Assembly: GCF_904830955.1 (NCBI RefSeq)
Contig: NZ_LR882970.1
Direction: 5' to 3' (one strand)
Source of the DNA: Planktothrix tepida
GTDB lineage: Bacteria > Cyanobacteriota > Cyanobacteriia > Cyanobacteriales > Microcoleaceae
Length of the DNA stretch: 64,000 bases
Notes under the pieces: generated by a model
The model's database searches: none
What the model was told of the DNA's origin: nothing
The model's input: the letters and a program-made list of their open reading frames with translations, nothing else
In this document: positions 21,891 to 48,043 of the stretch, piece by piece
Numbering within the stretch: the stretch's first letter is position 1
Layout: each line of letters starts with the position of its first letter
Position numbers and translations under genes: made by a program

Positions 21891-23324
21891 TCAATCTTGA
21901 GACCGCTTTTTCACATATTCTTTAATCACAGGTTGAAGGGTGAAGCCAAATGCTTCCCTGTCTATAGCTTTTTCAATTAAACCGCGTTTCCTCAAAGACT
22001 GTACGGCTTTCAAAAATTCTGAGTCCGACAAAAATTCTGCGGGTTTACTGCAAATATCTGCTGCTGTCTCTTGGTTAGCTAACCATACCATGACCAATTT
22101 TTCTGACTCTGATAACCTTTGATAATGTTCCTGTAATATTGTTTCTAAGTCTCCTAAAAACAGAGTAGAATAAGATAGAAATTGAGCAACGCTACCATTA
22201 AATAAATCGAGTATCGTTAAAGCAATAATGTTTAACCAGGAAGGGTTTCCGCCATAAAGATTAATCAGTTTTAACCATTGATCTTGATCATTTAATCCTC
22301 TCGCCTTCAAGAGTTGTTCTCCTGACTCTCCTAAACCTTGAAGTTCTAAACTTCGACAATGGGAGTTTTCAGCTTCTAAGGTAGCAATTTCTATGGGTTT
22401 TTCCCAACTCAGGAGTAGCAAGCAACTGTTATGTGACGATCGCCCAATTTGCTTTAATAATTTACCATAATTTTTGTATTCTGGGAAATAACTACCGACT
22501 AATTCCCCACTGGTTAATGTTTCTTGAAAATCATCAAGGATAATCAAACAACGATGCGATCGCAAAGAGTCAATAATTGATAATTGTTGAGTTTCTTGCT
22601 GTCGGAAAAGAAACTCAATTAAGTTAGTTTTTAGGGATTTTAGACTAGAAAATTGACTATGACTTCGCCAGATTACCCGATCAAAGTCCTCTTTTATGTG
22701 TTCAACCAGTTGGGTAGCGAGGGCTGTTTTACCAATACCAGATAATCCAAAAATAGTGATGATACGACTATTTTCCGTCAGTATCCATTGTTTCAAGGTG
22801 TTTAATTCTTGGGTGCGGTTGCAAAATATTTCGCATTCTGAGACTTCGGTTATATCGTGGTATTTTTCGGGTTCATTGTTGTCTGAGTTAACGGGGGAAG
22901 GTGATCGGTTTTTTGTGGTTTCTTGAGAATGCGGATTTTCTCCACAGACTGTAATGCTACTTCCAAAAGATTGACTCTGTACAACAAAATTACCCACTTG
23001 GGAATTAGAAATATTATACCGTTCCATCGTGGCGCGGAAGTTTGATTTATTAACTTTTTCGCCTAATTCTTTTGATATTATTTCCCATAAATTGCTTGCA
23101 ACTCTCTTGACATTCGCTTCACTACAGTGATAGCGTTCAGCAATTTCTCCATATTTTTGATTATGCCAAACCCCTATTAACACAGCTTGTTGTAGACTAT
23201 TTAAGTGTGTTCCTGTTTTGATAAACATCAACTCATCGGCCCACTTCAGGATTGTTTGAACATCCATAGGCGATACAAATATTATTTTGTCAGAAATCAT
23301 ACTACTTTTTTCATCCTTTTGCAA
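21891..23324 (-). CDS. STAND-class NTPase: N-terminal HTH-like domain + NB-ARC/AAA P-loop domain, with no C-terminal repeat sensor
   Basis: Walker A GLSGIGKTALATQL; Walker B IILDDFQE. The N-terminal 90 aa resembles a sigma70-region-4-like HTH (QQAVLIGVWHNQKYGEIAERYHCSEANVKRVASNLWEII). Only 477 aa. Confidence 0.6.
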   Translation of the reverse strand: MQKDEKSSMISDKIIFVSPMDVQTILKWADELMFIKTGTHLNSLQQAVLIGVWHNQKYGEIAERYHCSEANVKRVASNLWEIISKELGEKVNKSNFRATMERYNISNSQVGNFVVQSQSFGSSITVCGENPHSQETTKNRSPSPVNSDNNEPEKYHDITEVSECEIFCNRTQELNTLKQWILTENSRIITIFGLSGIGKTALATQLVEHIKEDFDRVIWRSHSQFSSLKSLKTNLIEFLFRQQETQQLSIIDSLRSHRCLIILDDFQETLTSGELVGSYFPEYKNYGKLLKQIGRSSHNSCLLLLSWEKPIEIATLEAENSHCRSLELQGLGESGEQLLKARGLNDQDQWLKLINLYGGNPSWLNIIALTILDLFNGSVAQFLSYSTLFLGDLETILQEHYQRLSESEKLVMVWLANQETAADICSKPAEFLSDSEFLKAVQSLRKRGLIEKAIDREAFGFTLQPVIKEYVKKRSQD

Positions 23325-31061: not shown

Positions 31062-32384
31062 ATGCAAAACCAAGATCCAAAATTATTAGAAAAAATTCGT
31101 CAACAGTTTGACTCAGCCCCCTATCCTAGAATTCCCTTAGAACACTCCCCTAAAACCGATTATGAGTTGCTATTTATCCACAATTTAGTCACGCCTTATT
31201 ATTTAAAATATCAGAAAGTTATTAATACAGAAGGAAAAGTTATTTTAGATGCAGGCTGTGGAAGCGGATATAAATCCTTAATGTTAGCAGAAGCCAATCC
31301 AGGGGCTAAAATTGTAGGGATTGATATTTCTGAACAATCTATTGAACTGGCTCGTCAACGTTTAAAATTTCATGGGTTTGATAATACAGAATTTTATGTT
31401 TTACCGATAGAAAACTTACCAGAAATTGGGTATGAGTTTGATTATATTAATGCAGATGAGGTGCTTTATCTATGCCCAAATTTATTCAATGCAATGCAAG
31501 GGATCAAACAAGTTTTAAAACCCCAAGGTATTATTCGGGCTAATGTACATAGTTTATATCAAAGGGTCGGTTATTTTAGGGCGCAATCTCTGTTTAAACT
31601 CATGGGAGTCATGGATGAAACTTCTCAAGAATTGAAGGTTGAGATCGCTAGAGAAACAATAGAATCCATCAAAGATGAAGTGGTACTCAAGACACAAACT
31701 TGGAATAGTCCAGATTATAAAAATGACGAATGGTTGCTGGTTAATTATTTACTTCAAGGGGATAAAGGCTATACAATCCCAGAGGTTTTTGCGGTTTTGA
31801 AGGCAACTGATTTACAATTGATCAGTATGGTAAAATGGCGACAATGGCAGTTACTAGATTTATTTAAAGATCCTGATAACTTACCTGCGTTTCTAGCCTT
31901 GAGTTTATCCGAAATTTCTATCGAGGAACAGCTACATTTATTTGAGTTAATTAACCCCGTGCATCGGTTATTAGATTTTTGGTGTGGTCATTGTGAGCAA
32001 GAATTGATTCTCCCGGTGTCTGAATGGGCTGAAGTTGATTGGCAAACGGCACGGGTTGATTTACATCCTCAACTCAGAACGACTCAAGCTAAAGCAGACT
32101 TAATTGAATGTATTCAGACCCATAGACCTTATGAAATTAGCCAATATGTGAAGTTACCCACTCGCATACCCATCACCCTTGAGAGTAGTCGGGCAGCCTG
32201 TTTACTGCCGTTATGGGATGGAAAACAGACGGTGATCTCCCTGGCAGAACGGTGGCAACAAATCTATCCTCTTGATCCCATTACCCTAGAACCCATTACT
32301 GTCCAGAGGGCACTGCAACAGATCAAAGAAGTCCTCATCACCCTGGATGCCTTTCTGTATGTGCTTCTGGAGCATTCCGGGTGA
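31062..32384 (+). CDS. Class I SAM-dependent methyltransferase with C-terminal extension
   Basis: Motif I VILDAGCGSGYKS; motif post-I IVGIDIS. Confidence 0.65.
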   Translation: MQNQDPKLLEKIRQQFDSAPYPRIPLEHSPKTDYELLFIHNLVTPYYLKYQKVINTEGKVILDAGCGSGYKSLMLAEANPGAKIVGIDISEQSIELARQRLKFHGFDNTEFYVLPIENLPEIGYEFDYINADEVLYLCPNLFNAMQGIKQVLKPQGIIRANVHSLYQRVGYFRAQSLFKLMGVMDETSQELKVEIARETIESIKDEVVLKTQTWNSPDYKNDEWLLVNYLLQGDKGYTIPEVFAVLKATDLQLISMVKWRQWQLLDLFKDPDNLPAFLALSLSEISIEEQLHLFELINPVHRLLDFWCGHCEQELILPVSEWAEVDWQTARVDLHPQLRTTQAKADLIECIQTHRPYEISQYVKLPTRIPITLESSRAACLLPLWDGKQTVISLAERWQQIYPLDPITLEPITVQRALQQIKEVLITLDAFLYVLLEHSG

Positions 32385-32487
32385 AATAAAAAAAATTTTT
32401 GTAGGGGTGATATGAAAGGTTGAGAAAGTGGGTAAGTTAGAACTACCAGATAAAAAGTTAAACATCCCCCCAAGAGGAGAAAAACCT

Positions 32488-33015
32488 ATGAAGACCGAAT
32501 TTAAAGCGAAATTCCTGCAATACGTTGCTAATAGAAAAAAAGAAGAAGGTTTCACCTTAATTGAATTGTTAGTTGTTATTATCATTATCGGTATTCTGGC
32601 TGCGATCGCTCTGCCTTCCTTCCTCAACCAAGCTAACAAAGCCAAACAGTCTGAAGGAAAACAATATCTTTCTTCCATTAACAAAGGTCAACAAGCTTAC
32701 TACGCTGAAAATACACAGTTTGGAGCAACCATTTCAGAATTAGGGATTGGTTTAAAAACCCAAACCTCTAACTTTGTCTATGACAATGGAGTTGCTACTG
32801 GTGGTACTGGAGCATCATCCTCAGCTTCCCCTGCTTCCTCTGCAATGAAAGCTTATGCGGCAGGTGTCGGCTTAAGTGGAACAGGCGAAGCAAAAACAAC
32901 CTCTACTGTTCTCTGTGAAGAAGTTGTAGCTGCAAACTGGCAGGATCCTGTTAGTATTGGATTCTCTACTACTGGGCCAATTTGTGGAACCAACCAAAGT
33001 GCAGTAACGAAATAA
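32488..33015 (+). CDS. pilA: Type IV pilin (PilA-like major pilin) precursor. The ORF could also start at 32428, but the SD favours 32488.
   Basis: Cyanobacterial-type long leader ending …KKEEG|FTLIELLVVIIIIGILAAIALPSF (prepilin peptidase site G|F, Glu+5). Ser/Thr/Gly-rich C-terminal region. AGGAG SD upstream of 32488. Confidence 0.8.
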   Translation: MKTEFKAKFLQYVANRKKEEGFTLIELLVVIIIIGILAAIALPSFLNQANKAKQSEGKQYLSSINKGQQAYYAENTQFGATISELGIGLKTQTSNFVYDNGVATGGTGASSSASPASSAMKAYAAGVGLSGTGEAKTTSTVLCEEVVAANWQDPVSIGFSTTGPICGTNQSAVTK

Positions 33016-33119: not shown

Positions 33120-35369
33120 TTGAGTTCTATGAAATCTAATCTTAGTCTAAGTGTTTATTCTGATTGGGAACAAAAAGCCAAGCAGTATTGGGAAGAAAAA
33201 AACTATACCCAATCGGCAAAATTGTATGAAGCTGCGATTGAAAGAGAACCTGATGTTAAATCTCTATACTGGTATCTAGGCTTAATGTTATTATTGCAAG
33301 GACAAGAAGTGGAAGCTCAAACCACTTGGTTCTTGGCAATGACCGAAGGTGAACCGGATCAAGTTGAGCAGTGGACGCAAGAATTAATCCAAGTTTTAGA
33401 AACTGAAGCTGAACGACAAAGAATTACCCTCGGAGACTGTACAACAGCCTGGATTATTCGCCAGCATATTCGAGAAATTAATCCCACAGATATTAATAAT
33501 CTTTTACATTTAGTGGGCTTATCAACCTTACTGAACACTTATTCCGATGAGGTGCTAGTTGAATTCGGAATTTTAGAGTTATTTCAATCTAATGTTATTG
33601 TTCCAGAAGACGTTAATAATGACTTATTACTTGAAGTTTTAAATAATGTTTTAGACCAAGCTCCTCAACAGCCTTTATCTTATGAATTAGTAGAAACCAC
33701 TGTTCCTTATCTGTCTGATATTCAGTCCTATATGGGAGTCTTAGTTCCCGTTATCTATCAATTAGCGTATTCTCGAAGTCAACATCCTTTAGCAATTAAA
33801 TTCACTGAACAAGGCTTAAAATTCGATCCCAAGCATCCTGAATTATGGCGATGTTTATCGACGTTGTATCAAGATATCGGGGAATATGCAAAGGGGATAG
33901 AAGTTGCAAAACATTGTTATTCTGTAATGGATAATTTTCCTGATCAAGTCTATGCAACTTTTTTATTGCTTCGGGGGTTAATGAGTGCTGGTGGACGCTG
34001 GACAGAATTCTGCACAACGATAGAAAATTATCAGTTGATGCTCAATCGTTTATTGGAAGAAAAGCCAACCTTAGCTTATGATTTGGCTGTGCGCTCTTTT
34101 TCAACAACATTTTTCTTTCCCTATTATCAAGATCAACCCCGCGAAAACTACTCGCTGCGTCGTCAGGTTTCTGAATTTATCCAGTCTAATATAGAAACTC
34201 AAAATACAGAAACAGTCAAGTATTGTCGGGGTTGGAAATCTCGTTCAAAAACAAATATTTTAGCTGAAAAACGCTTAAATATTGGTTATGTTTCCCACTG
34301 TTTAAGAAATCATTCGGTCGGTTGGTTAGCGAGGGGTTTATTTCAACATCATGACCATGATAAGTTTAAAATTCATAGTTATTTATTCGCAGCACAAAAG
34401 AATCATAATGAGGTACAAGATTGGTACGTTAGTAAAAGTGATAAAGCCCATGGATTAGGGTTAGATGGAAAAGAAGTGGCTAAAGTTATTTATGATGACG
34501 AGATTGATATTTTAGTAGATCTCGACAGTTTAACCTTGACATCAACCTGTGAAACCTTAGCTCTTAAACCAGCACCCATACAAGTTACTTGGTTAGGTTG
34601 GGATGCTTCATCGGTTCCCAGTGTCGATTATTTTATGGCTGACCCTTACGTTTTACCTGAAGATGCTCAAGACTATTATCAGGAAACAATTTGGCGTTTA
34701 CCTAATACTTATTTAGCAGTAGATGGGTTTGAAATCGCAATTCCTAGCCTGCGACGGGACGAATTAGGGGTTTCTAATGATGCCATTCTGTATTTTACGG
34801 CTCAACGAGGCTATAAATATAACCCTGATACGGCTAAATTACAGCTTCAAATTTTGAAAGCTGTTCCTAATAGTTATTTTTTGATTAAAGGGATGGCTGA
34901 TCAAGAATCTTTGAAAACTTTTTATGCTGAAATTGCTGAATCTGTTGGGGTCGATTGCGATCGCTTAAAATTATTACCTTTATCCCCAACAGAAGCGAGT
35001 CATCGAGCTAATTTAGCGATCGCAGATGTAGTTCTTGATACCTATCCCTATAATGGTGCTACAACCACGATGGAAACCCTGTGGATGGGTGTTCCAATGG
35101 TGACAAAGGTTGGGCAACAATTCGCCGCCCGTAATAGTTATACGATGATGATTAATGCCGGAATTACAGAAGGTATTGCTTGGACAGATGAAGAATATGT
35201 GGAATGGGGAATTAAGCTAGGAACTGATGAAAATTTACGGCAACAAGTTACTTGGAAATTAAGAAAAAATAGACAAACTGCCCCGTTATGGAATGCGGAA
35301 CAATTTACCCGTGAGATGGAGAATGCTTATCAACAAATGTGGCAGAGATATATTGAGGGTAAGAATTAA
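33120..35369 (+). CDS. TPR-repeat protein fused to a GT41 (O-GlcNAc-transferase/SPINDLY-like) glycosyltransferase domain
   Basis: N-terminal TPRs. C-terminal GT41 pattern (GYVSHCLRNHSVGWL…IQVTWLGWDASSVPSVDYFMADPYVLPED…LPNTYL…TYPYNGATTTMETLWMGVPMVT). Confidence 0.7.
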   Translation: MSSMKSNLSLSVYSDWEQKAKQYWEEKNYTQSAKLYEAAIEREPDVKSLYWYLGLMLLLQGQEVEAQTTWFLAMTEGEPDQVEQWTQELIQVLETEAERQRITLGDCTTAWIIRQHIREINPTDINNLLHLVGLSTLLNTYSDEVLVEFGILELFQSNVIVPEDVNNDLLLEVLNNVLDQAPQQPLSYELVETTVPYLSDIQSYMGVLVPVIYQLAYSRSQHPLAIKFTEQGLKFDPKHPELWRCLSTLYQDIGEYAKGIEVAKHCYSVMDNFPDQVYATFLLLRGLMSAGGRWTEFCTTIENYQLMLNRLLEEKPTLAYDLAVRSFSTTFFFPYYQDQPRENYSLRRQVSEFIQSNIETQNTETVKYCRGWKSRSKTNILAEKRLNIGYVSHCLRNHSVGWLARGLFQHHDHDKFKIHSYLFAAQKNHNEVQDWYVSKSDKAHGLGLDGKEVAKVIYDDEIDILVDLDSLTLTSTCETLALKPAPIQVTWLGWDASSVPSVDYFMADPYVLPEDAQDYYQETIWRLPNTYLAVDGFEIAIPSLRRDELGVSNDAILYFTAQRGYKYNPDTAKLQLQILKAVPNSYFLIKGMADQESLKTFYAEIAESVGVDCDRLKLLPLSPTEASHRANLAIADVVLDTYPYNGATTTMETLWMGVPMVTKVGQQFAARNSYTMMINAGITEGIAWTDEEYVEWGIKLGTDENLRQQVTWKLRKNRQTAPLWNAEQFTREMENAYQQMWQRYIEGKN

Positions 35370-35502: not shown

Positions 35503-37896
35503 TTATAAATCATAAACAGGAATTTTTTCTCCATTAAAATTAGCGATCGCATTTTGATCTTCATGTAATAGAATCATGCGGGCAGTCAAACGAGATCCTA
35601 GAGCCTGACTTTGCTGATCAGTTAATTGTCCTGTGAGGAGAATTTCTAATCCGACAGTGACATCCAATTCAGTTTCCATGAAGAAATTCATGACCATGCT
35701 AGATAAAATTACATTAGCATCTTCATCCAAAATATTCTGATTATTCAGATATAACGTTATTTCGTTTTGATTGGGTAGAGTTGCCAGGGTTTGGAAGAGA
35801 TGAGCTAACTCTAAATAAAGAGTTTCTTCCGGTTGTTTCCAATCAGGAAAAACAATATAATTTTTTTCTCTAAGTTTCCACAATTCCCAACCCCCATTTT
35901 CCAGCTTCAGACCTCGCCAATCTAGCAACTCTTCTAATGGAAACTGGGGAATTTGATCAGCATGAACTGCTTCAATTGCGGTGGAGTTTTCCAGGTCTAA
36001 ACAAATTCGACCTTGGACAATTGAAAGTAAATTTGACCACTGGGGTTGAGTTAACTGACCCAGGAGAGAAACATCTGGCCCCTCTTCCACATCTAATTCA
36101 TCTTCTATCAGAAGATTCATCATCATACTCGATAACGTTAAATCTGCATCTTCATCGCCCATTCCTTGATGATCAATCAATAGTTTAATTTGACGTTTAT
36201 CAAGATGATTAATCAGAGTTTTGATGATAGCACTTAACTGGGAATACAGTTGTTCTTCTTCTTGAGTCCAGTCAAGAAATACGATCAGATTAATGTCCTT
36301 TAATCCCAGATGACTAATATCCCCTTCTAATAAAGGTTGTAAACGCTCATAAAGTTGTTGTGCTTTGACAAAATCCGGCACAAACTGTAACACTCTTGTT
36401 ACCGCTTGTTCAGCCAAAACAATATCCTGTAATTGTTCTGCTGATTCGGCTAAATACCAAAAAACACGCCAATGATTACAGCCTAAATTAATAGCATTTT
36501 GAAACTCAAAAATGGCTTGAGGAATTCTTTGCTGATGACGTAAAACCAACGCCAACCATAACCTTAAATAGCCATCATTGATGTAATGATCTCGATACTG
36601 ACAAATGCTTCCTTCTCCTAATCCCAATAACATCGATGAAGCGGCAATTTGTTCTTCGGCTGCTAGAATTAAATCAATATTTTCTGCGGTTAAACTAACC
36701 AGAAAAGGTTCGGCTGTATGACCCAACGCTTTAATAAAGGTTTGCGCTCCCACAAACTTTTCAGGGAGTTCTAAAACATCCAGTAAAGATAGCGGTTGAT
36801 CTAATAAGCTCGATCCCATCGGAATGCCCCATTGACGTTCCCGCTTGGGTAATTGCATTAATTTTTCATAAATAGGATTCAATTGTTTAGCCGCATTTTC
36901 GGCACCAAAAAGCTGTTTAGCATATTCTTTAGCATTTTGCCCAAGTCGTATTCTTTCTTGAGGATGATGATAAAGATATTCAATGGCTTGGGTGTATTCT
37001 AATTGACTTTTAACGACTAATCCAGTATAATTATTAATAACTAATCGTTTAATTCCACCATGAGGAAAAACAACAGGGGGGATTCCAGCACACATGACTT
37101 CTTGTAAATTTAACTCTGCGGCGGCATAGGTATCTTTACAAAGCGGATAACCATAAATATCTAAGGTTTCAATCACGGATGCAATATCTTCAACGAAGCC
37201 TCGGAAATCAAATTTTTCAGACGCATTAATTTTTTCAGCTTGTTGTTTTAAATAATCTTCTACACCTCCACCACAAACCACAAAACGCACATCGGGAAGA
37301 TTCACCGCAGCACTCATGGCGACATAATCTTGGTGCATTTTACTAAAGCTAACACTGCCAATATAACCGACATTAAAATTTTGATGGGGTTTAGGCTGAA
37401 TATTAGCAACACGCTCAAAATCTGCCGCATCATAAACCATACCAATTTTTTCAATTCTCACGGCATCAGGGAGAGATTGAAAGACCGGAAGCTCATAGGA
37501 GTAAGGATTACAAGGAATAGCAAAATCAGCGTAATCTACTAATTCCTTAGTAATCACTTGAGGGGGATATTCTCCAGCAACATGAAACCAAATTAAGAGC
37601 CGAGTTTCGGGAAGTGGCGATCGCAAAAATTCAAACAGTTTGGGGTTATTCCAATAATGAACTTGAACAATATCAACGGTTTTAATAGCCTCAAAGATGT
37701 CCGTTTGATCCAAAGTATTAATAAATTTCATTCCCGATTGTTCAGCCAGTTCTAAAGCCATCCAATCAGGGGGTTTAAGGGAGACTAAATAATGTTCAAA
37801 TTGACCTAATCTTGATGAATATTTGGAGGTAGCTATCATGCCGCGAGCAGCACCACCCAAACACAACCAATCAATAATATGTAGAACCTTAATCAT
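35503..37896 (-). CDS. Glycosyltransferase (GT4/GT1-type GT-B fold) with a C-terminal duplicated uncharacterised ~100-aa domain
   Basis: GT-B C-terminal-domain motifs (…DIYGYPLCKDTYAAAELNLQEVMCAGIPPVVFPHGGIKRLV…). Two tandem copies of the domain carrying LSSMMMNLLIEDELDV / LSSMVMNFFMETELDV. Confidence 0.6.
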   Translation of the reverse strand: MIKVLHIIDWLCLGGAARGMIATSKYSSRLGQFEHYLVSLKPPDWMALELAEQSGMKFINTLDQTDIFEAIKTVDIVQVHYWNNPKLFEFLRSPLPETRLLIWFHVAGEYPPQVITKELVDYADFAIPCNPYSYELPVFQSLPDAVRIEKIGMVYDAADFERVANIQPKPHQNFNVGYIGSVSFSKMHQDYVAMSAAVNLPDVRFVVCGGGVEDYLKQQAEKINASEKFDFRGFVEDIASVIETLDIYGYPLCKDTYAAAELNLQEVMCAGIPPVVFPHGGIKRLVINNYTGLVVKSQLEYTQAIEYLYHHPQERIRLGQNAKEYAKQLFGAENAAKQLNPIYEKLMQLPKRERQWGIPMGSSLLDQPLSLLDVLELPEKFVGAQTFIKALGHTAEPFLVSLTAENIDLILAAEEQIAASSMLLGLGEGSICQYRDHYINDGYLRLWLALVLRHQQRIPQAIFEFQNAINLGCNHWRVFWYLAESAEQLQDIVLAEQAVTRVLQFVPDFVKAQQLYERLQPLLEGDISHLGLKDINLIVFLDWTQEEEQLYSQLSAIIKTLINHLDKRQIKLLIDHQGMGDEDADLTLSSMMMNLLIEDELDVEEGPDVSLLGQLTQPQWSNLLSIVQGRICLDLENSTAIEAVHADQIPQFPLEELLDWRGLKLENGGWELWKLREKNYIVFPDWKQPEETLYLELAHLFQTLATLPNQNEITLYLNNQNILDEDANVILSSMVMNFFMETELDVTVGLEILLTGQLTDQQSQALGSRLTARMILLHEDQNAIANFNGEKIPVYDL

Positions 37897-37912
37897 GACT
37901 TTAATCCTTCAA

Positions 37913-40900
37913 TTAGTTAATGGGTTTACGATAGACTCGAATGGTGGAAAATACCCCTGGAATAATCGGGAGATAGGCTTGAGTTTGGGTGGGATCTGTG
38001 GGATATAAAAGGGGAATATCGATTAGTTCACAACGATAGGTGTCTTCCATAAGTTCCTGACACGCTTGACGAATCCCCGGTTCATTTCCGCCATGATGAG
38101 ATAAGATTGCACTACGATTCTCATCATTAAGGGCAGGTAAGTAATCATGGAACATCATAATTCCACCGGGTTTTAACAAGGGATAATAGTTAATAATATC
38201 TTGTTTGACTCCTTCATAACTGTGATCTCCATCGACAAAAATGAAGGGAGGGAAATTGCTATCTTGTTCAAATTTCAGTTGCAGTTGAATCACGGCATCA
38301 TGGGAAAACTGTTGCAGATGGGTAACATTTTGTTTAACTTCTTGAAGAACCAGTTTTAACTGAGGATGTAACCCTGGATCGATGGCAAATCCTTGTAAAT
38401 TAGAGGTGAGTCGGTTTAAGGCTTTACAAGTTAGAAATAGAGAACTTCCTGCAAATGATCCAATTTCAATAAAACGCAAGGGTTGAGAAAATTCGGGTAA
38501 CAATTTTCGGAGAACATAATAGAGTTGAAATCGTTCATTTTTCGACATTTGGCTTTGAATCCCATAAACAACTGGATCATCTTGATTAAAGTCGTTTAGT
38601 AGGTTGGGTTCAATAATGGGATTAAGAGGAAATTGATCAGGGGTTGTCAACCAAACTCCTGTATAATCAATCGGATTCAAATTGAATTTAAGGTGATTTT
38701 TTTCTTCAAATTCATGTAAAGCTTTTTTACAGCCTTCCCAATGACCATAATTATCAACTTGGATAAACCCATCATTAACCACGCGGTCAAAAAGCTGTTC
38801 TAAAATGACTTTTGTAGATTCATACCAATCACCATCCATGTGCAAGAGTGCAATTACCCCAACTGAATTTCTGAATTGAGGTAAGGTGTCTTGGAAATAT
38901 CCTTTAACTGTACGAACAACATCAGAAACACCCAATTTTGCACAGAGATTTAAAACACTAGATTCCGGTGCCGCACAACTTCCTTGTGTCAAACCGAGGG
39001 ACTCTGCTGATACACCTTGATATCGATCAAATTCAGAGGGTTTAGGTAAACCTTGAAAGGAATCAAAAGCATATAGTAATCGAGGTTGTTTACTATATCT
39101 TGTAAGGACAGCCGCTAGTAATGCAGTTGAACCCCCTTTTTCTACACCACACTCCACAAAATTACCCGGAATATTATCAATACAAACCTTTTTCGCTAAG
39201 GAAAACAGTGAATATAATCGTTCTTCGCTCAGTCCGGTATAAGGAGAAACAATCTGTAATAATTCTTGAAATTCTGGATAATCTGGTGGAAGGGATTGAG
39301 ATTTAATATTGGTAGATTTACTTTTGATAGATTGAGGAATTGATGCGCGAATTTTTGCTAGAGTCTGCTTTTTCAAAAAGCCATTTGTTGCCCAAGTTAA
39401 GTTATATCCAAAAAAGTCACAATATTCTCCATCAATTTCATAGTCTTGGGGATGTTCTGATAAAAAGGACTTTAAAGCTTGATGGGGGCCACTATTATAA
39501 GAAGCATCTTGAACAATATCAGAAATAATGCCATCCTCAACAATAATATATTCTCCTTGATCCAGATAAGCATGGAAGAAATCTAACACTGCTTTACTGG
39601 TTGTAAATGAATGATCTGCATCCTCAATCACTAATAAAGGGCGGGGTAGGGATTGAATGAATTTAGGGGATAACGTTTCCGCTAAATTACTTCCATCGCC
39701 TTCTAAAAAGGTAACGCGAGGATGGGAAACTTGAGTCACTTTGACAATATCAATGGAATAAACATGACCTTCAATTCCAAAGTTATTCATTAAATCTCCA
39801 AACCATAAGGCACTTCCTCCGCTTTTAGAACCAATTTCAATAATAGTCTGAGGTTTAATTTTCCAGAGCAATACCGGATAAATCGAATAATCAAAGGGAT
39901 TTTTTTGTAACGGAACTCCTTTGTAAGAAAAGTTATGTAAAGCATTTTGAATCGACATCATTAATTCATAAGGCAAAGCGGTATTCCAGGGTCGTTCATG
40001 GGTGGGAATTTTTGCTTTTTCAGGTCGAATCAAGGCTTGAGTTAAAGATTGAACTTGAGCTTGAGCTTCAGGGTGATTGGGGTTATTTTCTAGTTCCTGT
40101 TTAGCTGCTGCTAGTGCTTCTTCATATCGACCGACTGCACTTAAACAAACGGCTCGAATATAGTGCATTTCTGGGATAAATATTCCGGCTTCTTTGTTTT
40201 TTTCAGCACAACGTAAAGCAGCCACTTTTTGACCTTGATTGAATAAAGAAATAGCTTTTTCAATCTGAGCTTTAATTTTTTGTTTTGCTTCAGTGGATAA
40301 CTGTTCTAACAGCCGTTGACCTTGGGAGTGATTAGGGTTCAAATTCAATAATGCTTTGAGGGAATCAAGAGACTCAAATAATTGACCTAGACGAGCTTCA
40401 GCAATCGCTTTAGCGTAATAAACCCCTGATTGCTCTGGAGCAATTTCCAGTACCTCTTTAAAGAGATTGAGAGCTTCTAAATTTTCATTTTTATTGAGAG
40501 ATTCAATTCCTTGGGATAAACGTTCTATCCCCTCTGAATTTAGTTTTTCTTGAGTCGGAGATACAGTAGAACTAAACATAATTGCCTCAGTCCAATGATC
40601 AGCTTGACGGTTACGCATTACAACAGTTGGATGTTGCAGGGGAAAACTAATGGGTTGTGTGGGTAAATTAGCCAGTTGAGATTCCCCTTTCGTATGGGTT
40701 GCATCGGCTCTAAAACCAATATTTGAAACTAGATTAACGTGAGGAAGAATCGTTAAGCCTTGATTCGCCCAACAAGCAAATGTCCAAGCATAATCCCAAG
40801 TATTAAATCCTTCATAGGCATCTTGAAAGATTCTTGACCAATAGGCGATCACTTCAGGATTTTCTAGGATCTGTTGTAACCTCCCTGTGTCTCTAATTGA

Positions 40901-42064
40901 CGGCCATAATTTCATTTCTAAATCATACAATTTCCAAGCTCTGCGCCAAGTTGCCCAGCCCCAAATATGATTGTACCGAGAAAAGTAGTAACTAGCCCCT
41001 GGATGATTGTGTCCAAATTGAAAATTATTACCTGAGATTGCCATAATTAGTTCATCATGGCGATATCGTTCTAATAATTCTTCACAAAATCGGAAAAATG
41101 TCACATCGGGTAAACAATCATCTTCAAGAATAATGGCTTCTTCAACAGTATTAAAAACCCAATTTAAGCCACTGGAAACTCGATGACGACAGCCTAAGTT
41201 AATATCAGAATAGTGGGTTAAAACTTCACAATCCCAATCCACTTGATTAATAATTGCTCTGGTGGCTGCACATTTTTGAAATTCACCGTTTACATTCCGT
41301 CGCGGGCCATCAGCAATGACCAGGAGTTTTTCGGGTTTCACCTGACGAATTGCATTAAACACTTGCTGCGTTGTGTCCGGTCTGTTGAAAATCATTAAAC
41401 AAACCGGAGTTGTTAATTGGGGTTTTTGATCAAGTTCAGATAAATTTTTAAGCGGATAACTTACCCCAGGTTTTCTAGCTTCTGCATAAATAGATTCATG
41501 CTTTCTCGTTTCTAAATCTAAACCGGGTTCAAACTCCCTGAGCTTAACATTTTCAAAACCAACATTAGCAATAATTATGGGTAAGTTTTCGTTATCAAAC
41601 AGATAACGATGATGACCATCCATATAAGCGATATAATTAATAAAATCTATTTTAGAATGATAGTGATAGGCAGGGGTATAAAGACAATACTTTTCAGGAT
41701 CGAATTGATCGGGTTTCTCATAAGATTCTATATAAATTCTGGCATCGGGGACAGCTATTTTAAAAATACCTCCGGGTTTTAAAACGCGATAGCATTCTGA
41801 AAGCAAGTTCAGCATCGGATCAGGAAACGAAAAGTGTTCTAATAGATGAGAGGAGTAAATTTCTTCTACGCAGTTATCAGGAAAGGGTAGAGGTTTTGAC
41901 AAATCCATACATAAATCACTATTGGGATCTAAATCCATTGTGAGCCACCCTTCCATTCTCTTCTGGGAAGAACCTAACTCAATTTTGATGGGTTTTCCCC
42001 TTTCTAAAATCAACTGAATTAAATGTTGATTTTTGATGGCAATCTGTGATAAAAAGTCATTCAT
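37913..42064 (-). CDS. 1383-aa multidomain enzyme: class I SAM-MTase + GT-A-like glycosyltransferase + TPR repeats + CmcI-family MTase + TylF/MycF-family O-MTase + a further class I MTase
   Basis: Successive domain signatures read from the translation (VLKPGGIFKIAVPD; LMIFNRPD…ILEDDCLPD; TPR block; IIEIGSKSGGSALWF; FVECGVEKGGSTALLAAVL…DSFQGLP; IEIGSFAGSSLFL…MFHDY). Confidence 0.6.
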   Translation of the reverse strand: MNDFLSQIAIKNQHLIQLILERGKPIKIELGSSQKRMEGWLTMDLDPNSDLCMDLSKPLPFPDNCVEEIYSSHLLEHFSFPDPMLNLLSECYRVLKPGGIFKIAVPDARIYIESYEKPDQFDPEKYCLYTPAYHYHSKIDFINYIAYMDGHHRYLFDNENLPIIIANVGFENVKLREFEPGLDLETRKHESIYAEARKPGVSYPLKNLSELDQKPQLTTPVCLMIFNRPDTTQQVFNAIRQVKPEKLLVIADGPRRNVNGEFQKCAATRAIINQVDWDCEVLTHYSDINLGCRHRVSSGLNWVFNTVEEAIILEDDCLPDVTFFRFCEELLERYRHDELIMAISGNNFQFGHNHPGASYYFSRYNHIWGWATWRRAWKLYDLEMKLWPSIRDTGRLQQILENPEVIAYWSRIFQDAYEGFNTWDYAWTFACWANQGLTILPHVNLVSNIGFRADATHTKGESQLANLPTQPISFPLQHPTVVMRNRQADHWTEAIMFSSTVSPTQEKLNSEGIERLSQGIESLNKNENLEALNLFKEVLEIAPEQSGVYYAKAIAEARLGQLFESLDSLKALLNLNPNHSQGQRLLEQLSTEAKQKIKAQIEKAISLFNQGQKVAALRCAEKNKEAGIFIPEMHYIRAVCLSAVGRYEEALAAAKQELENNPNHPEAQAQVQSLTQALIRPEKAKIPTHERPWNTALPYELMMSIQNALHNFSYKGVPLQKNPFDYSIYPVLLWKIKPQTIIEIGSKSGGSALWFGDLMNNFGIEGHVYSIDIVKVTQVSHPRVTFLEGDGSNLAETLSPKFIQSLPRPLLVIEDADHSFTTSKAVLDFFHAYLDQGEYIIVEDGIISDIVQDASYNSGPHQALKSFLSEHPQDYEIDGEYCDFFGYNLTWATNGFLKKQTLAKIRASIPQSIKSKSTNIKSQSLPPDYPEFQELLQIVSPYTGLSEERLYSLFSLAKKVCIDNIPGNFVECGVEKGGSTALLAAVLTRYSKQPRLLYAFDSFQGLPKPSEFDRYQGVSAESLGLTQGSCAAPESSVLNLCAKLGVSDVVRTVKGYFQDTLPQFRNSVGVIALLHMDGDWYESTKVILEQLFDRVVNDGFIQVDNYGHWEGCKKALHEFEEKNHLKFNLNPIDYTGVWLTTPDQFPLNPIIEPNLLNDFNQDDPVVYGIQSQMSKNERFQLYYVLRKLLPEFSQPLRFIEIGSFAGSSLFLTCKALNRLTSNLQGFAIDPGLHPQLKLVLQEVKQNVTHLQQFSHDAVIQLQLKFEQDSNFPPFIFVDGDHSYEGVKQDIINYYPLLKPGGIMMFHDYLPALNDENRSAILSHHGGNEPGIRQACQELMEDTYRCELIDIPLLYPTDPTQTQAYLPIIPGVFSTIRVYRKPIN

Positions 42065-42111
42065 TTTTTAATCCTCTTTATAAGTTTTAAACACAATCTC
42101 ACTATCATCAT

Positions 42112-43371
42112 TTAATTATCTTGAGTAGGAGAGGGTTTGGGATTCATGACTTGAAAACATCCTTTTCCTAAAATAGATTGTTTCTGGCTGGGAACTCCCT
42201 GGCTTTCTAAAATATCAAATTTCCTAAAAAACAAAGAGGTACAATTTTTATAAGTGTAGCTAGAAATAATCCCCCAGAAATCCAGACGTTTATAACCTTC
42301 ATTGGCTAATTTTTGAACAGAGGAGTCATAATTGTAATCATCGGTATTATCAAAGATAATTAAGCCCCTTTCTTTAATGTGATTTAAACTTATTTCCAAA
42401 CACCGATTTCGATTAGCTCCATCAACAATAATAACATCAAAGTAATCCGATGGAAAGGAAGAAATCATTTCTGCATATTCTTGTTCATCTTCTCGTAAAA
42501 AAATTTGAACATTTTTAGGCATTTTAGCCTTGATTTCTTCAAACCAATTGGCATCATTTTCAATAGAAATAACTTCTGAAACTCGTTGTGACCACCATAA
42601 GGTTGAGTTACCTGCTCCAAATTCAAAGACTTTAAAATCAGGCTTAACTTTATCTTCTAAAAATTCAATCGCTGGATAGGTATACCAGGGAAGGGGTTGA
42701 TTATCTTGAGTTACAGGTTTTCTTTGATATAGTGAATTCAACCATCCTGATGTCAGAAAATAATTAATTCCCGGAGGAAGATTAGCCGCAACTTCATACC
42801 AATTTAAAGATAGAATTAAACTATGAGCTACTGGAATTGAATACCCTTTTTCTACTAAGTCAGGATAATCTGACAATAGCTGTTTTCCTAATTCAGCAGA
42901 TTCAACAAATCTTTGAGCGTTAAAACATTGTTGGGTGAGTTGTAATTTAAAGTTTTTTTGTTGTTCATTAATTGTCGATAGAAATTCATATTTTTCTAAA
43001 TCAGTTACTTGCTCTAAGGTGACAATCGGAATAATATCTGACCATTCATTGAGTTGGCTTTTGTTGACGTTATTACCTAATATCTTATAATTTATTTTTA
43101 AAATGGAGTTAAACCATTCTTCAAAATTTTGGGAACTAACTAAACTAATATTAAGAGCATCTTCTAATTGTTCATTTCCCTCGATCATCAAGTTCATCAT
43201 TACACCTGATACATACAGGTCTGCTTCTTGACCAGGAAACTGATCATAGTCGATAAAAATAGATAAATTGCTTCTGTCAGGATGGTTGAGAAAGGCTTTG
43301 ATTATTGTTGTCAATTCTAACAAAAGCTCAGGCTCTGGTGATGCCCAGTTGAACAGAACCAAAAAATTCAT
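42112..43371 (-). CDS. Uncharacterised N-terminal domain (same family as the repeats in the GT4 protein) fused to a class I SAM-dependent methyltransferase
   Basis: N-terminal …LYVSGVMMNLMIEGNEQLEDAL…. C-terminal MTase motif I VFEFGAGNSTLWW and …IIVDGANRN…. Confidence 0.6.
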   Translation of the reverse strand: MNFLVLFNWASPEPELLLELTTIIKAFLNHPDRSNLSIFIDYDQFPGQEADLYVSGVMMNLMIEGNEQLEDALNISLVSSQNFEEWFNSILKINYKILGNNVNKSQLNEWSDIIPIVTLEQVTDLEKYEFLSTINEQQKNFKLQLTQQCFNAQRFVESAELGKQLLSDYPDLVEKGYSIPVAHSLILSLNWYEVAANLPPGINYFLTSGWLNSLYQRKPVTQDNQPLPWYTYPAIEFLEDKVKPDFKVFEFGAGNSTLWWSQRVSEVISIENDANWFEEIKAKMPKNVQIFLREDEQEYAEMISSFPSDYFDVIIVDGANRNRCLEISLNHIKERGLIIFDNTDDYNYDSSVQKLANEGYKRLDFWGIISSYTYKNCTSLFFRKFDILESQGVPSQKQSILGKGCFQVMNPKPSPTQDN

Positions 43372-43618
43372 AGACTCGGAGCCTTCTAGGGGATTATGGT
43401 TTTAGTATACCCTGTGGGTTTCAGAAAATGATCATTTTTGCTGTATTAATTTTTTGTAAGATATTATAGTTTAGATTAGTCAGTGTTTAAATCGCTTGTA
43501 TAATATTTGACTAGCTGATGATTTAACGAAATTAATCTGTTAAAATAGATCTGAAGTACAATTGATTTATTTTTTCATAGTTTAATCGTTAACCTATATC
43601 TTGACCAGATAATAAATC

Positions 43619-46600
43619 ATGAAAATTATAAACTTTTTAGATCTTTATTCCTCAATAGAAGAATCCCATGATTTAGTTAATAACTGGTCACTCTTATTTC
43701 CTGAGCTACAGTTTATTTTAAAACTGGGAGATCCTGAAAACAATATTTATCTTCCTCTATTGTTAAACTTAGCAGTTCGCAATTTAGAAAATCAGGAAAT
43801 TTATTGCCAAATCGGGGTAAATTATGTTAGTAGTTTAATGGGTGCGTTACTGAATAATCCTGACTCTATAGCTTATGTGGTCGATTCCTTCTATGAAAAA
43901 GATGAATCCCAAAGTTATGAATCTAGCGTTGAAATTTTAGATGCTTTAAATTTTAGTAATCAAGTATTTTTATGTGATCAAGAACCAGAAGAATTTTTAT
44001 TAGAACTAAGAGAAGTTGAATTTGAGAATCAAATCGGTGTTTGTTTCTACGATTGGAAAACTGATTATCGTTCTGTTCTGAATAGCTTATTATTGATTAA
44101 TTCTTTTTTATCTGATCAAGCATTAATTATTGTTAATGATGCAAATCATGCCAGTGTTCAGCAAGCTATATGGGATTTTATCGCAGCAACACCTGAATGT
44201 CAAGTTGAACTAGAACTATTACCTCAGACTGATGAACCACTCCTGTTTGAAGATAGGATTTTTATTATCAGTCGGGATATCAACAGAACTTTTAACTATC
44301 AAACAGTGGCTTTGCTAAACCATCGCCAACCTCAAGTCATTCAAAGAATTTCTCAGTTACATCAATTCGACAAATTATTAAATAAAATTTATCAGGAAGC
44401 TGTCGATTTTCATCAAAACGAAAAATTTAATGAAGCCGAAAACAAATATCAAGAATTTATTGATTTTAATCCAAATCATCTGGAAGCGTGGATGAATTTA
44501 GGAAAGTTATATTATCAAATCGAAAATTATCAAGCATCTCTGCACGCTAGTTACAAGTTAATAGCACTGACTCCTCAAAGGTTTGACGGATATTATCAAT
44601 TAGGTCAATGCTTTGAAAAATTGAATCAAGTTGAACAAGCGATCGCAGCCTACGAAAAAACAATCGCATTAAAACCTGATTATCTTGATGCCTATAATAA
44701 CTTAGGAAATCTCTTAACGCAACAAGGGCAATTTGCAGAAGCAGAAACAGTTTATCGTCAAGCAATAAAGATTAACCCTAATCATTTTGGTAGTTACTTG
44801 AATTTAGGCAATTTATTTTTATTGCAAAATCAATTTCAATTCGCTAAAGCAACCTATCAAAAAGGTTTAAGGATTATTCCAGATCAGCCTGATATTCTGC
44901 ATAACTTAGCTCTAACGGATGAAATAGAAAAAAATCCGATTCCTTATTATCGTAGTTTTGGCGATCGCTTGTATGAATTAGGCAATTATGAAGGAGCGAT
45001 CACAGAATATCAAAAAATCCTCAATTTGCAAGCGGGAGATGTTGATCTTTATGAAAAACTCAATCACTGTTACTGGCAACTCAACCAACCGAATGATGCC
45101 ATAGATATCTTGAAAATAGGAACAAAAATTTATCCTGATTTTGCCCCCCTTCATTTTACATTAATTATGAATCTTCTTTATCAAGGAAGAACAGAAGAAG
45201 CCGTTAAACAAGCGGAACTAGCATCAGAATACTTACCCAAAGATTATACCTTTACGTTGCTTAAACATTTAATTGTTCCGATGTTGTATCACTCCGTTGA
45301 GGAAATCAATAATTATCGTGAACGATTTAATCAAGGATTACAAAATTTAATTGCAACGACCGATTTAAATGATCCTGAAACCTTAGAACAATCGTTTTTA
45401 GGAATGGGACGATTTACCAATTTTTATTTAGGGTATCAAGCGAGAAATGTGGTTGAAGAACAACGCATTTATGGTCATTTTCTTTATCAAATAATGTCGA
45501 AGAAATATCCCCAGTGGGTTCAAACGCTAACTCTCCCTCCTGTAGAAGATAAAATAAGAGTTGGATATGTTTCCAGTTATTTACATTGTTATAGTGGTTC
45601 ACTCTGGTTAATCGGTTGGTTGCGCTATGCGAATCGTGATCAGTTTGAAATTTACGCTTATTATACGGGGAATTCTCCTGATCCTGTTACGGAAAAATTT
45701 AGACAATATAGTCATAAATTTTATCATATTCCTAATAATTTAGAAGCGGTTGCTGAACAAATTATTAAGGATCAACTGCATATTTTAGTCTATCCCGAAA
45801 TTGGCATGAACCCCCCAACAATGGAACTTGCAGCATTGCGTTTAGCACCTATTCAATGCACAGCTTGGGGTCATCCCGTCACATCAGGACTTCCAACCAT
45901 TGATTATTTCCTATCGAGTCAATTAATGGAACCGGAAAACGCACAGAAACATTATTCAGAAGCCTTAATTTTATTACCGAATATTGGGGTTGCTTATCCG
46001 AAACCTCAAGATATTCCACCGTTAGTTAAAACTCGATTAGACTATAATTTACCCGAAGATACGGTGATTTATTTATGTTGTCAAGCTCCCTTTAAATATC
46101 TTCCCCAATATGATTATATTTTACCGGAAATTGCGATCAAGGTTCCGAACGCTAAGTTTTTATTTTTCCGAGGAACATTACTCAATGATCGCTTAAATCA
46201 AGCTTTTTCTAACTATGGCTTAAATTATCAGGATTATTGTTTACATCGAAAAGTTGACGAACGCTTTGATTATTTAATGTTAAACCAACTTTCGGATGTG
46301 TTTTTAGATACCTTTACTTGGTCGGGAGGAAATACCTCTTTAGAAGCGATCGCTTGTTATTTACCTATTGTCACTTGTCCTGGGGAATTTATGCGAGGTC
46401 GTCATGCAGATAGTTTCCTAAAAATGATGGGTTTAACAGAAACTATTGCAAAAAATGAAGCAGAATATATTGAAATTGCGGTCAAATTAGGGTTAGATTC
46501 TATATGGCGTGAAACAATTTCTCAACAGATGGGTGAACGCCAAAATCTTCTATTTGATGATCAAGTTTGTGTGACTGCGCTAGAGGAATTTTATCAAGCT

Positions 46601-46624
46601 GTCACTAAAGCTAGACTTTCATAA
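43619..46624 (+). CDS. Second TPR + GT41 (OGT/SPINDLY-like) protein, 1001 aa, with N-terminal domain distantly resembling the same uncharacterised domain
   Basis: TPR block (aa ~260-520). GT41 C-terminal pattern (VGYVSSYLHCYSGSLWLIGWL…APIQCTAWGHPVTSGLPTIDYFLSS…). N-terminal …VNYVSSLMGALLNNPD…. Confidence 0.65.
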   Translation: MKIINFLDLYSSIEESHDLVNNWSLLFPELQFILKLGDPENNIYLPLLLNLAVRNLENQEIYCQIGVNYVSSLMGALLNNPDSIAYVVDSFYEKDESQSYESSVEILDALNFSNQVFLCDQEPEEFLLELREVEFENQIGVCFYDWKTDYRSVLNSLLLINSFLSDQALIIVNDANHASVQQAIWDFIAATPECQVELELLPQTDEPLLFEDRIFIISRDINRTFNYQTVALLNHRQPQVIQRISQLHQFDKLLNKIYQEAVDFHQNEKFNEAENKYQEFIDFNPNHLEAWMNLGKLYYQIENYQASLHASYKLIALTPQRFDGYYQLGQCFEKLNQVEQAIAAYEKTIALKPDYLDAYNNLGNLLTQQGQFAEAETVYRQAIKINPNHFGSYLNLGNLFLLQNQFQFAKATYQKGLRIIPDQPDILHNLALTDEIEKNPIPYYRSFGDRLYELGNYEGAITEYQKILNLQAGDVDLYEKLNHCYWQLNQPNDAIDILKIGTKIYPDFAPLHFTLIMNLLYQGRTEEAVKQAELASEYLPKDYTFTLLKHLIVPMLYHSVEEINNYRERFNQGLQNLIATTDLNDPETLEQSFLGMGRFTNFYLGYQARNVVEEQRIYGHFLYQIMSKKYPQWVQTLTLPPVEDKIRVGYVSSYLHCYSGSLWLIGWLRYANRDQFEIYAYYTGNSPDPVTEKFRQYSHKFYHIPNNLEAVAEQIIKDQLHILVYPEIGMNPPTMELAALRLAPIQCTAWGHPVTSGLPTIDYFLSSQLMEPENAQKHYSEALILLPNIGVAYPKPQDIPPLVKTRLDYNLPEDTVIYLCCQAPFKYLPQYDYILPEIAIKVPNAKFLFFRGTLLNDRLNQAFSNYGLNYQDYCLHRKVDERFDYLMLNQLSDVFLDTFTWSGGNTSLEAIACYLPIVTCPGEFMRGRHADSFLKMMGLTETIAKNEAEYIEIAVKLGLDSIWRETISQQMGERQNLLFDDQVCVTALEEFYQAVTKARLS

Positions 46625-47257: not shown

Positions 47258-48043
47258 TCAAAAGTGATCAGAACTAGATTCGGGTAATTCGCCAAACTGT
47301 TGACGGTAAAGGTTTAGCAACGTTTCTAACTCTTGGGAACGCTGTTGAGCTTCTTCGGCTTGACGTTGAGCTTCTTCGGCTTGACGTTGAGCTTCTTCGG
47401 CTTTTTGTGCAGATAATTCATCAACTGTGGGTAGAATTTCACCCTCTGAAGTAGCCCATCTTAGCCAGACCGTTTCGACGGTTTTATAACTTCCTGACCA
47501 TCGCACTAATGATAAGCCTAATTGTTGACTGACTAATCGATTAAATTGATCAGGAAAAATCGGTTCATAACTGCCATTAATTAACGTAAATCCTGCCCAA
47601 TCATCAGGATTAAAGGGATCATACCAAAAATATTCAGGAACCCGAACTTGATTTTGATAGATGAGTTTTTTGTTTGTTTTATCTTCTGGGGCGGTACTTT
47701 GTGATAATAATTCAATAATCACATCGGGGGCTTTTCCTTCTTCCCAAACCACCCAACTTTTTCGTTCTTTTTTGGGAACGCCTAATACGGCAAAAAAATC
47801 AGGACCTTTGAAGTCTTGGTTTCGCACTTGAGCTAAACTAAAATAGAGAAACATATTCCCCCCAACATAACCATCTTCTCGTTGTTCTAACCAAGGAATT
47901 AACTGATCAATCAGCAAATCCATTTGCAGTTTATGGCGTTGAGTTTCCATCGGGACTCCATCGTCACAAGGTAGTTCATCTTGCGTGGGCGGTAATATTA
48001 ACCCAAAGGGGATTGTTTCTTGTGGTGGTGACATAGCTCTCAA
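47258..48043 (-). CDS. Uma2-family (DUF820) putative endonuclease with C-terminal (AEEAQRQ)3 repeat
   Basis: Family-typical length and core. C-terminal 21-nt x3 tandem repeat at 47344-47406. Confidence 0.5.
   Translation of the reverse strand: MRAMSPPQETIPFGLILPPTQDELPCDDGVPMETQRHKLQMDLLIDQLIPWLEQREDGYVGGNMFLYFSLAQVRNQDFKGPDFFAVLGVPKKERKSWVVWEEGKAPDVIIELLSQSTAPEDKTNKKLIYQNQVRVPEYFWYDPFNPDDWAGFTLINGSYEPIFPDQFNRLVSQQLGLSLVRWSGSYKTVETVWLRWATSEGEILPTVDELSAQKAEEAQRQAEEAQRQAEEAQQRSQELETLLNLYRQQFGELPESSSDHF

Follow-up and report, generated by a model that had tools for sequence, protein, structure and literature searches.

How might transferases that share no catalytic fold be brought to one protein-bound glycan? 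The question is raised by a locus of the cyanobacterium Planktothrix tepida, which lies in a stretch of 64,000 nucleotides from contig NZ_LR882970.1 (assembly GCF_904830955.1; the whole stretch is called the window below). The gene set considered there consists of six large genes and one small pilin gene, and in two of the large genes an unnamed domain of about 125 residues, for which DOM serves as a working label, occurs three times. DOM is an unnamed and so far cyanobacteria-only family; its fold class is known and its pathway is partly characterised, and it does not represent a new kind of system. The answer that I favour, with caution, is that DOM recruits the enzymes that carry it.

Copies of the domain in the window

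Two copies, r1 and r2, stand in tandem and form the C-terminus of a 797-residue GT4 glycosyltransferase (open reading frame (ORF) 35503-37896, minus strand), and the third forms the N-terminus of a 419-residue methyltransferase (Table 1). In pairwise BLASTP comparisons r1 and r2 are 40% identical over 123 residues (E 6e-28), r1 and the methyltransferase copy are 30% identical (E 9e-20), and r2 matches the methyltransferase copy at E 1.5e-8. The third copy belongs to a divergent subtype in which LFNW replaces FPDW. When the six-frame translation of the 64-kb window was searched with hidden Markov models (HMMs) built from three and from 287 sequences, each model found exactly these three copies. 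An earlier note on this DNA, made from the sequence alone, had counted four. Its tandem pair at the C-terminus of the GT4 protein is borne out by the r1-r2 alignment and by both HMMs, and its copy at the N-terminus of ORF 42112-43371 by the BLASTP match to r1 and by the deep (287-sequence) HMM (E 5e-30), but the fourth, placed at the N-terminus of the GT41 protein encoded by ORF 43619-46624, fails with BLASTP and with both HMMs. The best BLASTP match of this N-terminus to any copy has an E of 0.1 across 13 residues, and even with every filter switched off the deep HMM does not list ORF 43619-46624 among its matches as far as E 20. Close relatives carry similar copies: copy 2 has a closely aligning counterpart in a Planktothrix fragment (P0001), and the P. 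agardhii orthologue of the copy-3 methyltransferase (P0035) is 74% identical to it over 417 residues.

The signature derived from 287 family sequences reads N-L-I-x-F-P-D-W-x-Q-x-E-E ... T-L-L-x-D ... E-D-A-x-L-x-L-S-x-V-x-M-N-L-L ... E-I-S-L ... Q-W-x2-L ... R-I-x-L-x2-E, with which the core motif given in the earlier note agrees. Near-invariant within N-L-I-x-F-P-D-W are N (98%), F (96%), P (98%), D (91%) and W (99%), followed by E (97%); further along, A (90%), S (92%), M (92%), L (93%), a second W (94%) and a Glu after beta4 (90%) are also conserved, and the M-N pair belongs to the same near-invariant set (90-99%). No Gly is conserved at 70% or more, and one basic residue alone reaches 70%. 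The near-invariant polar residues are conserved across Nostocales, Oscillatoriales and further orders. The domain is strongly acidic, with a median isoelectric point (pI) of 4.2 and a median net charge of -14 over 130 residues.

A cyanobacterial family without a database entry

A full HMMER scan with the three-copy profile against 1.84 billion cluster representatives (clusters at 50% identity) yielded 496 representatives at E <= 1e-3, of which 371 pass E <= 1e-10 and 61 pass E <= 1e-30. The family is visible only by this full scan; a word-indexed protein search was nearly empty (one match, then six short ones). All organism-named members of ten sampled clusters are cyanobacterial, and the taxa named are Planktothrix, Microcoleus, Chroococcidiopsis, Coleofasciculaceae, Oscillatoria acuminata, Nostoc and Cyanobacterium.

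Copies 1 and 2, searched as isolated segments, match no Pfam family at E <= 10, and isolated copy 3 gives only a chance-level Pfam match (E 0.0096, below the cut-off). No NCBIfam model lies over residues 526-797 of the GT4 protein or residues 1-125 of the methyltransferase, and a PDB sequence search with DOM returned no match. Full-length relatives match Pfam solely through their catalytic domains. The earlier note's view that the domain has no named family therefore holds: the similarity among the copies is significant, no well-characterised Pfam domain maps to them, and no Pfam-A, NCBIfam or PDB-sequence match covers DOM. Literature searches found no description of DOM, of the FPDW motif or of the convergent tailoring block described below, although missing matches are no proof of absence. 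Annotations in the sampled clusters go no further than 'glycosyltransferase', 'FkbM family methyltransferase', 'class I SAM-dependent methyltransferase' or 'hypothetical protein', and because its carriers are thus named after their catalytic part or not at all, DOM merits an entry in Pfam or InterPro.

A movable module on unrelated enzymes

Where does DOM sit, and on what? Among 175 domains of the best 151 proteins, 132 (75%) are C-terminal, ending at most 25 residues from the end of the protein, 35 are internal and eight are N-terminal; two copies occur in 21 of these proteins and four copies in one. A Pfam census of 52 full-length proteins found as partners Glycos_transf_1/GT4 (19), Glycos_transf_2 (16), Glyco_transf_41 (14), Methyltransf_24 (9), FkbM (6), Methyltransf_23 (5) and CmcI (3). 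DOM is thus fused alike to GT-A, GT-B and class I methyltransferase folds, and since these three catalytic folds are unrelated, it is not part of any single catalytic domain. Fusions of several catalytic domains, for example GT4-CmcI-TylF-GT4-DOM, have just one DOM, which is terminal.

Gene fission and fusion take place at DOM boundaries. What in many species is a GT4-DOM gene with an independent GT41 gene behind it corresponds in loci L003, L008, L046 and L076 to one fused GT4-DOM-GT41 gene; two tandem DOMs precede the GT41 domain in L002, L006, L012 and L049, and DOM-GT41 proteins were found in seven loci. The N-terminal half of P0002 (Planktothrix sp. UBA8407 / P. paucivesiculata) is 72% identical to the 1383-residue protein of the window, which has no DOM, and its DOM pair is 70% identical to the C-terminus of the window's GT4 protein; the tandem cassette thus sits on different enzymes in close relatives and, judged from this comparison, has moved between enzymes within the genus. 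The window's own GT4 plus DOM architecture is also found in a relative (fragment P0008). Taken together, DOM is shown to be autonomously folding, movable, independent of the attached catalytic fold and usually present once per polypeptide, and the re-use of one module on unrelated enzymes of a glycosylation locus, which the earlier note described for this window, extends to the whole family.

Several DOM ORFs of about 380-560 residues have no Pfam domain at E <= 1e-5 (L007:8366-10045, L020:8339-10012, L028:5120-6784, L077:5445-6761 and L059:7962-9104), and these may represent a further uncharacterised enzyme family of the island.

The domain accompanies the pilA-ogt pair

A scan of one genome per GTDB species gave 424 confirmed DOM stretches. 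The locus statistics that follow refer to the best 79, which were retrieved with a 12-sequence subfamily alignment, and so are biased toward one subfamily, and which were annotated with local HMMs made from the window's own domains. All organism-named loci among them are cyanobacterial, and nearly all are from filamentous species. The gene order is conserved and is that of the window: a methyltransferase, a pilin and a TPR-GT41 gene (TPR, tetratricopeptide repeat) on one strand, convergent with one or more DOM genes, usually GT4...DOM, after which there is often a DOM-x gene or a short GT41 gene. Of the 79 loci, 66 contain a pilin-like ORF with the class III signal motif; in 25 of the 79, between two and four DOM genes lie within +/-8 kb, and those of one locus invariably share a strand. 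Furthermore, three independently chosen DOM proteins of other architectures also adjoin TPR-GT41 genes, and one of these three loci holds two Pilin_GH genes. As far as seen, DOM is restricted to a pilA-ogt-associated island of cyanobacteria.

Part of this arrangement has been described before. An ogt gene (TPR-GT41) is reported to lie next to pilA in 77 of 201 cyanobacterial genomes (PMC9306852), and Ogt is given there and in a review as required for PilA glycosylation (PMC9306852, PMC12288463). The window contains the same pilin-then-TPR-GT41 pair, on the same strand, as the published module (S. elongatus Ogt, Synpcc7942_0051; N. punctiforme OgtA). However, the available portions of the published accounts cover just Ogt and the pilin, whereas the extended island adds a convergent block of DOM-bearing GT4, GT2, GT41 and methyltransferase genes. 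DOM and the extended island appear to be new here, the pairing of pilA with ogt being already published. The earlier note had the locus as glycosylation machinery, an idea that I keep, but it omitted the pilA-ogt identity of the island and with it the pilin gene at 32428-33015. The presence of this gene suggests a likely substrate for the machinery, and the PilA-like pilin is the probable target of glycosylation.

One of the three independently chosen loci is L082, where five consecutive tailoring genes each carry DOM (methyltransferase-DOM-methyltransferase; DOM-TylF; GT2-DOM-methyltransferase; GT4-GT4-DOM; unknown-DOM) and the nucleoside diphosphate (NDP)-sugar genes upstream do not. This nucleotide-sugar block (L082:600-7775) encodes an NTP_transferase, HAD, SIS_2, a GHMP kinase, three epimerase/dehydratase proteins and a methyltransferase of the Methyltransf_13/14 type, a content that suggests an unusual, possibly heptose-derived, methylated sugar in the glycan of this island. 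In another locus, L081 (Cyanobacterium sp. JBSZCP010000033.1), the island is mixed with many toxin-antitoxin genes (YoeB/PhdYeFM, PIN, HicB, RelB, YafQ, HigB, ParE) and with Uma2 and DUF29 genes.

The predicted fold

A three-sequence alignment gave a beta-alpha-beta-alpha-beta-alpha-beta model with a predicted local distance difference test (pLDDT) score of 78.8. The tandem pair (residues 526-797) was modelled with AlphaFold2 (AF2) from a 35-row alignment at a pLDDT of 91.9 (copy 1 mostly above 90) and a predicted template modelling (pTM) score of 0.76; each copy is predicted as beta1-alpha1-beta2-alpha2-beta3-alpha3-beta4-alpha4-beta5, and a predicted beta-hairpin linker joins the two. The predicted fold is clearly a Rossmann-like three-layer alpha/beta sandwich, most like one GT-B lobe. 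According to the DSSP topology, most near-invariant residues are placed where a strand ends or a helix begins, and D-W, the Glu starting alpha1, the Asp ending beta2, E-D-A at the start of alpha2 and the Glu after beta4 would all fall on the C-terminal edge of the sheet, which is the usual ligand-binding edge of Rossmann-like folds.

How close is DOM to known proteins of this fold? It shares the Rossmann-like lobe with GT-B enzymes, both the GT41 OGTs (XcOGT, 2jlb; TtOGT, 5djs; SPINDLY, 8dtf) and GT4 enzymes, and its descent from a glycosyltransferase lobe is plausible on the model. GT-B enzymes are two-lobed, however, whereas DOM is a single lobe of which most family members have one, and the tandem pair cannot be superposed as a two-lobed GT-B enzyme, since the alignment extends to no more than 115-133 residues and Z does not improve. 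Comparison by hhalign of the 287-sequence DOM alignment with C- and N-lobe alignments of GT41 and GT4 proteins from the same loci gave probabilities of 0.2-0.9%, and with the Methyltransf_24-type domains of these loci less than 1%. A decayed GT41 or GT4 lobe that could still be recognised by its sequence was accordingly rejected (hhalign probability <1%). The Glu after beta4 (90%) could match the first Glu of the GT4 EX7E motif; no conserved acidic residue follows 7-8 positions on.

The best structural matches of DOM are non-catalytic proteins. With the tandem model, Foldseek ranked tandem-type universal stress proteins (USPs) first (E 5e-7, template modelling (TM) score ~0.27). USP domains (Rv2623, 3cis; TTHA0350, 3ab8; UspE, 5cb0) have a biological context unlike that of DOM, DOM has no Pfam match to Usp (PF00582), and the ATP-binding glycines of the G-x2-G-x9-G-[ST] motif are not conserved in the family. 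Asp1 and Gap1 (6lnw, 6oyc, 5vaf), which are associated with accessory Sec glycosylation in streptococci, are two-lobed proteins of about 500 residues, in contrast to the single lobe of about 125 residues that makes up DOM; DOM is 12-17% identical to them, with no PDB sequence match, and they differ from it in phylum and pathway too. No accessory Sec genes were seen among the annotated ORFs of the window.

What might the domain do?

The reading that I prefer, at somewhat less than even confidence, is that DOM is a shared non-catalytic handle by which the enzymes that tailor the pilin glycan are recruited to a common target that is not itself DOM. That it is autonomous, independent of the catalytic fold, movable, mostly present once per polypeptide and restricted to the island points to such a handle. 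A target other than DOM is favoured because most loci show a single DOM gene and because Trp and carboxylates abound on the conserved surface, as they often do in sugar-binding sites. Under this proposal the glycan of the PilA-like pilin would most likely be built up by the DOM-bearing glycosyltransferases and O-methyltransferases, and DOM would direct these enzymes, unrelated in catalysis, to a single pathway component. The likeliest such component is the pilin, primed by Ogt and glycosylated, or the glycan that it carries; failing that, it would be the Ogt/TPR enzyme. DOM would bind with its conserved surface, rich in Trp and acidic residues, on the side of the beta-sheet where the strands have their C-terminal ends. 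I infer, then, that DOM has no catalytic activity, that the pilin glycan is the product of the pathway and that binding is to a common target. The role in targeting, substrate recognition or docking proposed in the earlier note is consistent with the architecture, the synteny and the fold.

A more specific and more doubtful version of this proposal makes DOM the common address tag of a cytoplasmic glycan assembly line: a cyanobacteria-specific domain for reading or docking, descended from a glycosyltransferase lobe, that would recognise Ogt-primed pilin or Ogt and recruit interchangeable GT4, GT2, GT41 and O-methyltransferase modules. If this were true, strain-specific pilin glycans could evolve through catalytic cassettes shuffled onto a constant DOM handle.

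Several observations weigh against recruitment. Not every tailoring enzyme has the handle: in the window the 1383-residue multi-methyltransferase, the 440-residue methyltransferase and both GT41 proteins lack DOM, as do the FkbM enzymes of L080. Other proteins of the locus are acidic too (pI 4.6-5.5), so that the charge of about -14 on DOM indicates no obvious basic partner. The apparent clustering of conserved residues rests on topology, not coordinates, and these polar residues could equally form a catalytic or small-molecule site. Finally, the 79 loci are the best matches to one subfamily query and mostly one orthologous locus, so the 84% association with pilins may overstate that of the whole family. 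Electrostatic docking of an acidic DOM on a basic pilin or TPR partner was also considered and is unsupported, all locus proteins being acidic.

Do the domains instead bind one another? DOMs might pair, as homo- or heterodimers, to assemble a multi-enzyme complex of which tandem copies would be the intramolecular version. DOM genes are neighbours in 25 of the 79 loci, L082 having five together, 21 of 151 representatives contain a tandem pair, neighbouring enzymes fuse and split at DOM boundaries, the pTM of 0.76 suggests a defined mutual packing, and the tandem-type USPs with which Foldseek pairs the tandem model are themselves mimics of USP dimers. On the other hand, no second DOM gene lies within +/-8 kb in 54 of the 79 loci, self-association is disfavoured by the net charge of each domain (about -14), and a TM score of only ~0.27 means that the model does not reproduce the arrangement of a USP dimer. 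Moreover, the tandem copies are old paralogues, r1 being 40% identical to r2 and 64% identical to a copy from another protein. I regard docking between enzymes as rather unlikely, though it is the strongest of the rival readings.

The fold itself suggests another possibility: that DOM binds a nucleotide, a nucleotide-sugar or some other metabolite in the Rossmann crevice and tunes the attached enzyme, for which USP, SLOG and CARF-type domains are precedents as sensors or regulators. The conserved polar residues at the C-terminal edge of the sheet would suit such a role, but there is no glycine-rich or basic phosphate-binding motif (no Gly reaches 70%, and a single basic residue does), the acidic conserved surface is poorly suited to nucleotide phosphates, and neither Usp nor any other Pfam family is matched. 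A sensor seems improbable on this evidence.

Less probable again is a cryptic catalytic domain, that is, a small undescribed enzyme acting on the glycan, such as a substituent transferase or a hydrolase. The near-invariant polar residues N, D, E, S, N, R and E, shared across cyanobacterial orders, would be expected of an enzyme, and the context is always glycan tailoring. Yet up to five copies per locus, besides tandem copies within a protein, would be unusual for one catalytic step, the motif decays in genuine copies of the window (FLDW and LFNW for FPDW, QEA for EDA), and the best structural matches are to non-catalytic proteins. That DOM is an inert, decayed glycosyltransferase lobe kept for folding, solubility or spacing, as its GT-B-lobe-like fold without detectable sequence relation and its very acidic composition might suggest, is hardly credible for a domain that holds specific residues at 90-99% in at least 287 sequences of distant orders, was repeatedly transferred between enzymes as a cassette and fills 496 clusters at 50% identity.

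Why would recruitment matter? Glycosylation of cyanobacterial pilins influences motility, biofilm formation and pilus stability, and only the priming Ogt is so far known to have been studied among the enzymes responsible. The DOM family, with at least 496 clusters, marks the remaining enzymes of the pilA-ogt island in bloom-forming and soil-crust filamentous cyanobacteria, among them Planktothrix, Microcoleus and Nostoc. If DOM is a recruitment handle, it offers a testable answer to how unrelated transferases reach one protein-bound glycan and, in addition, a simple sequence marker for locating such islands.

Other genes of the island

The positions of the DOM copies and of the remaining features of the island are collected in Table 1. 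For the Methyltransf_24-type domain of the 419-residue protein, a local HMM of that type scores 304 bits, a value that is not independent, since the HMM was seeded from that very region.

Table 1. Features of the probable pilin glycosylation island, in window coordinates
Feature	Place in protein	Position	Strand	Evidence
DOM copy 1 (r1)	GT4 protein, aa ~526-660	35917..36321	-	HMM envelope; BLASTP to other copies
DOM copy 2 (r2), C-terminus	GT4 protein, aa ~664-797	35506..35907	-	BLASTP; HMMs; AF2 tandem model
DOM copy 3, N-terminus	419-aa methyltransferase, aa 1-~125	42997..43371	-	BLASTP; deep-HMM E 5e-30
GT4 (Glycos_transf_1) catalytic region of the DOM-pair protein	aa 164-324 (Pfam match)	36847..37896	-	PF00534, E 9.5e-19
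TPR-like spacer	between GT4 domain and DOM copy 1	36322..36846	-	weak TPR_2 and TPR_16 matches, E 1e-4 to 2e-3
DOM-methyltransferase protein, 419 aa		42112-43371	-	N-terminal DOM, C-terminal Methyltransf_24-type domain
Methyltransf_24-type catalytic domain	419-aa protein	42115..42654	-	PF13578, E 5e-5, below gathering cut-off
PilA-like type IV pilin ORF, 195 aa		32428..33015	+	PF16734 (Pilin_GH), E 7e-23; PF07963 (N_methyl), E 2e-9
TPR-GT41 protein, Ogt/OgtA position, 749 aa, directly downstream of pilin gene; no DOM		33120..35369	+	PF13844, E 7e-50; synteny
Class I methyltransferase (Methyltransf_31), 440 aa, upstream of pilin gene; no DOM		31062..32384	+	Pfam
Multi-methyltransferase, 1383 aa; no DOM	Methyltransf_11, unassigned ~300 aa, TPR, CmcI, TylF, Methyltransf_24	37913..42064	-	Pfam
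Second TPR-GT41 protein, 1001 aa; no DOM		43619..46624	+	Pfam

The true start of the pilin ORF is likely to be an internal Met ahead of GFTLIELL. The pilin ends in Lys (...SAVTK), as do 51 of 69 pilin-like ORFs when it is included, and a homologue of the window's Methyltransf_31-type methyltransferase adjoins the pilin gene in 31 of the 79 loci. Trimethylation of the C-terminal Lys of Synechocystis PilA1 is mentioned in a review (PMC12288463). The position of this gene upstream of the pilin, the pilins that end in Lys and the modification of PilA1 together make its product a candidate pilin Lys methyltransferase.

Two stretches of the larger proteins may be further catalytic domains or remnants of them. 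The N-terminal 240 residues of the 1001-residue protein (43619-44338), which precede its TPRs and are the segment that the earlier note took for a fourth DOM, give a sub-threshold Methyltransf_24 match (E 0.005, residues 84-174) and no significant BLASTP match to the window's own Methyltransf_24 domains; they may be a degenerate Methyltransf_24-like domain fused to the GT41 enzyme. In the 1383-residue protein, about 300 residues between Methyltransf_11 and the TPRs (residues ~200-500, 40565-41470) have no Pfam match even at E 10 and contain an EDDCLP motif. This stretch is conserved in P0002, within the similar N-terminal half described above, and would fit an unrecognised GT-A-like domain.

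At one border of the island in the window is a Uma2 gene (47258-48043), and about 8 kb upstream of the island lies a gene for a STAND-type ATPase with NB-ARC/NACHT (21891-23324), which appears to be unrelated.

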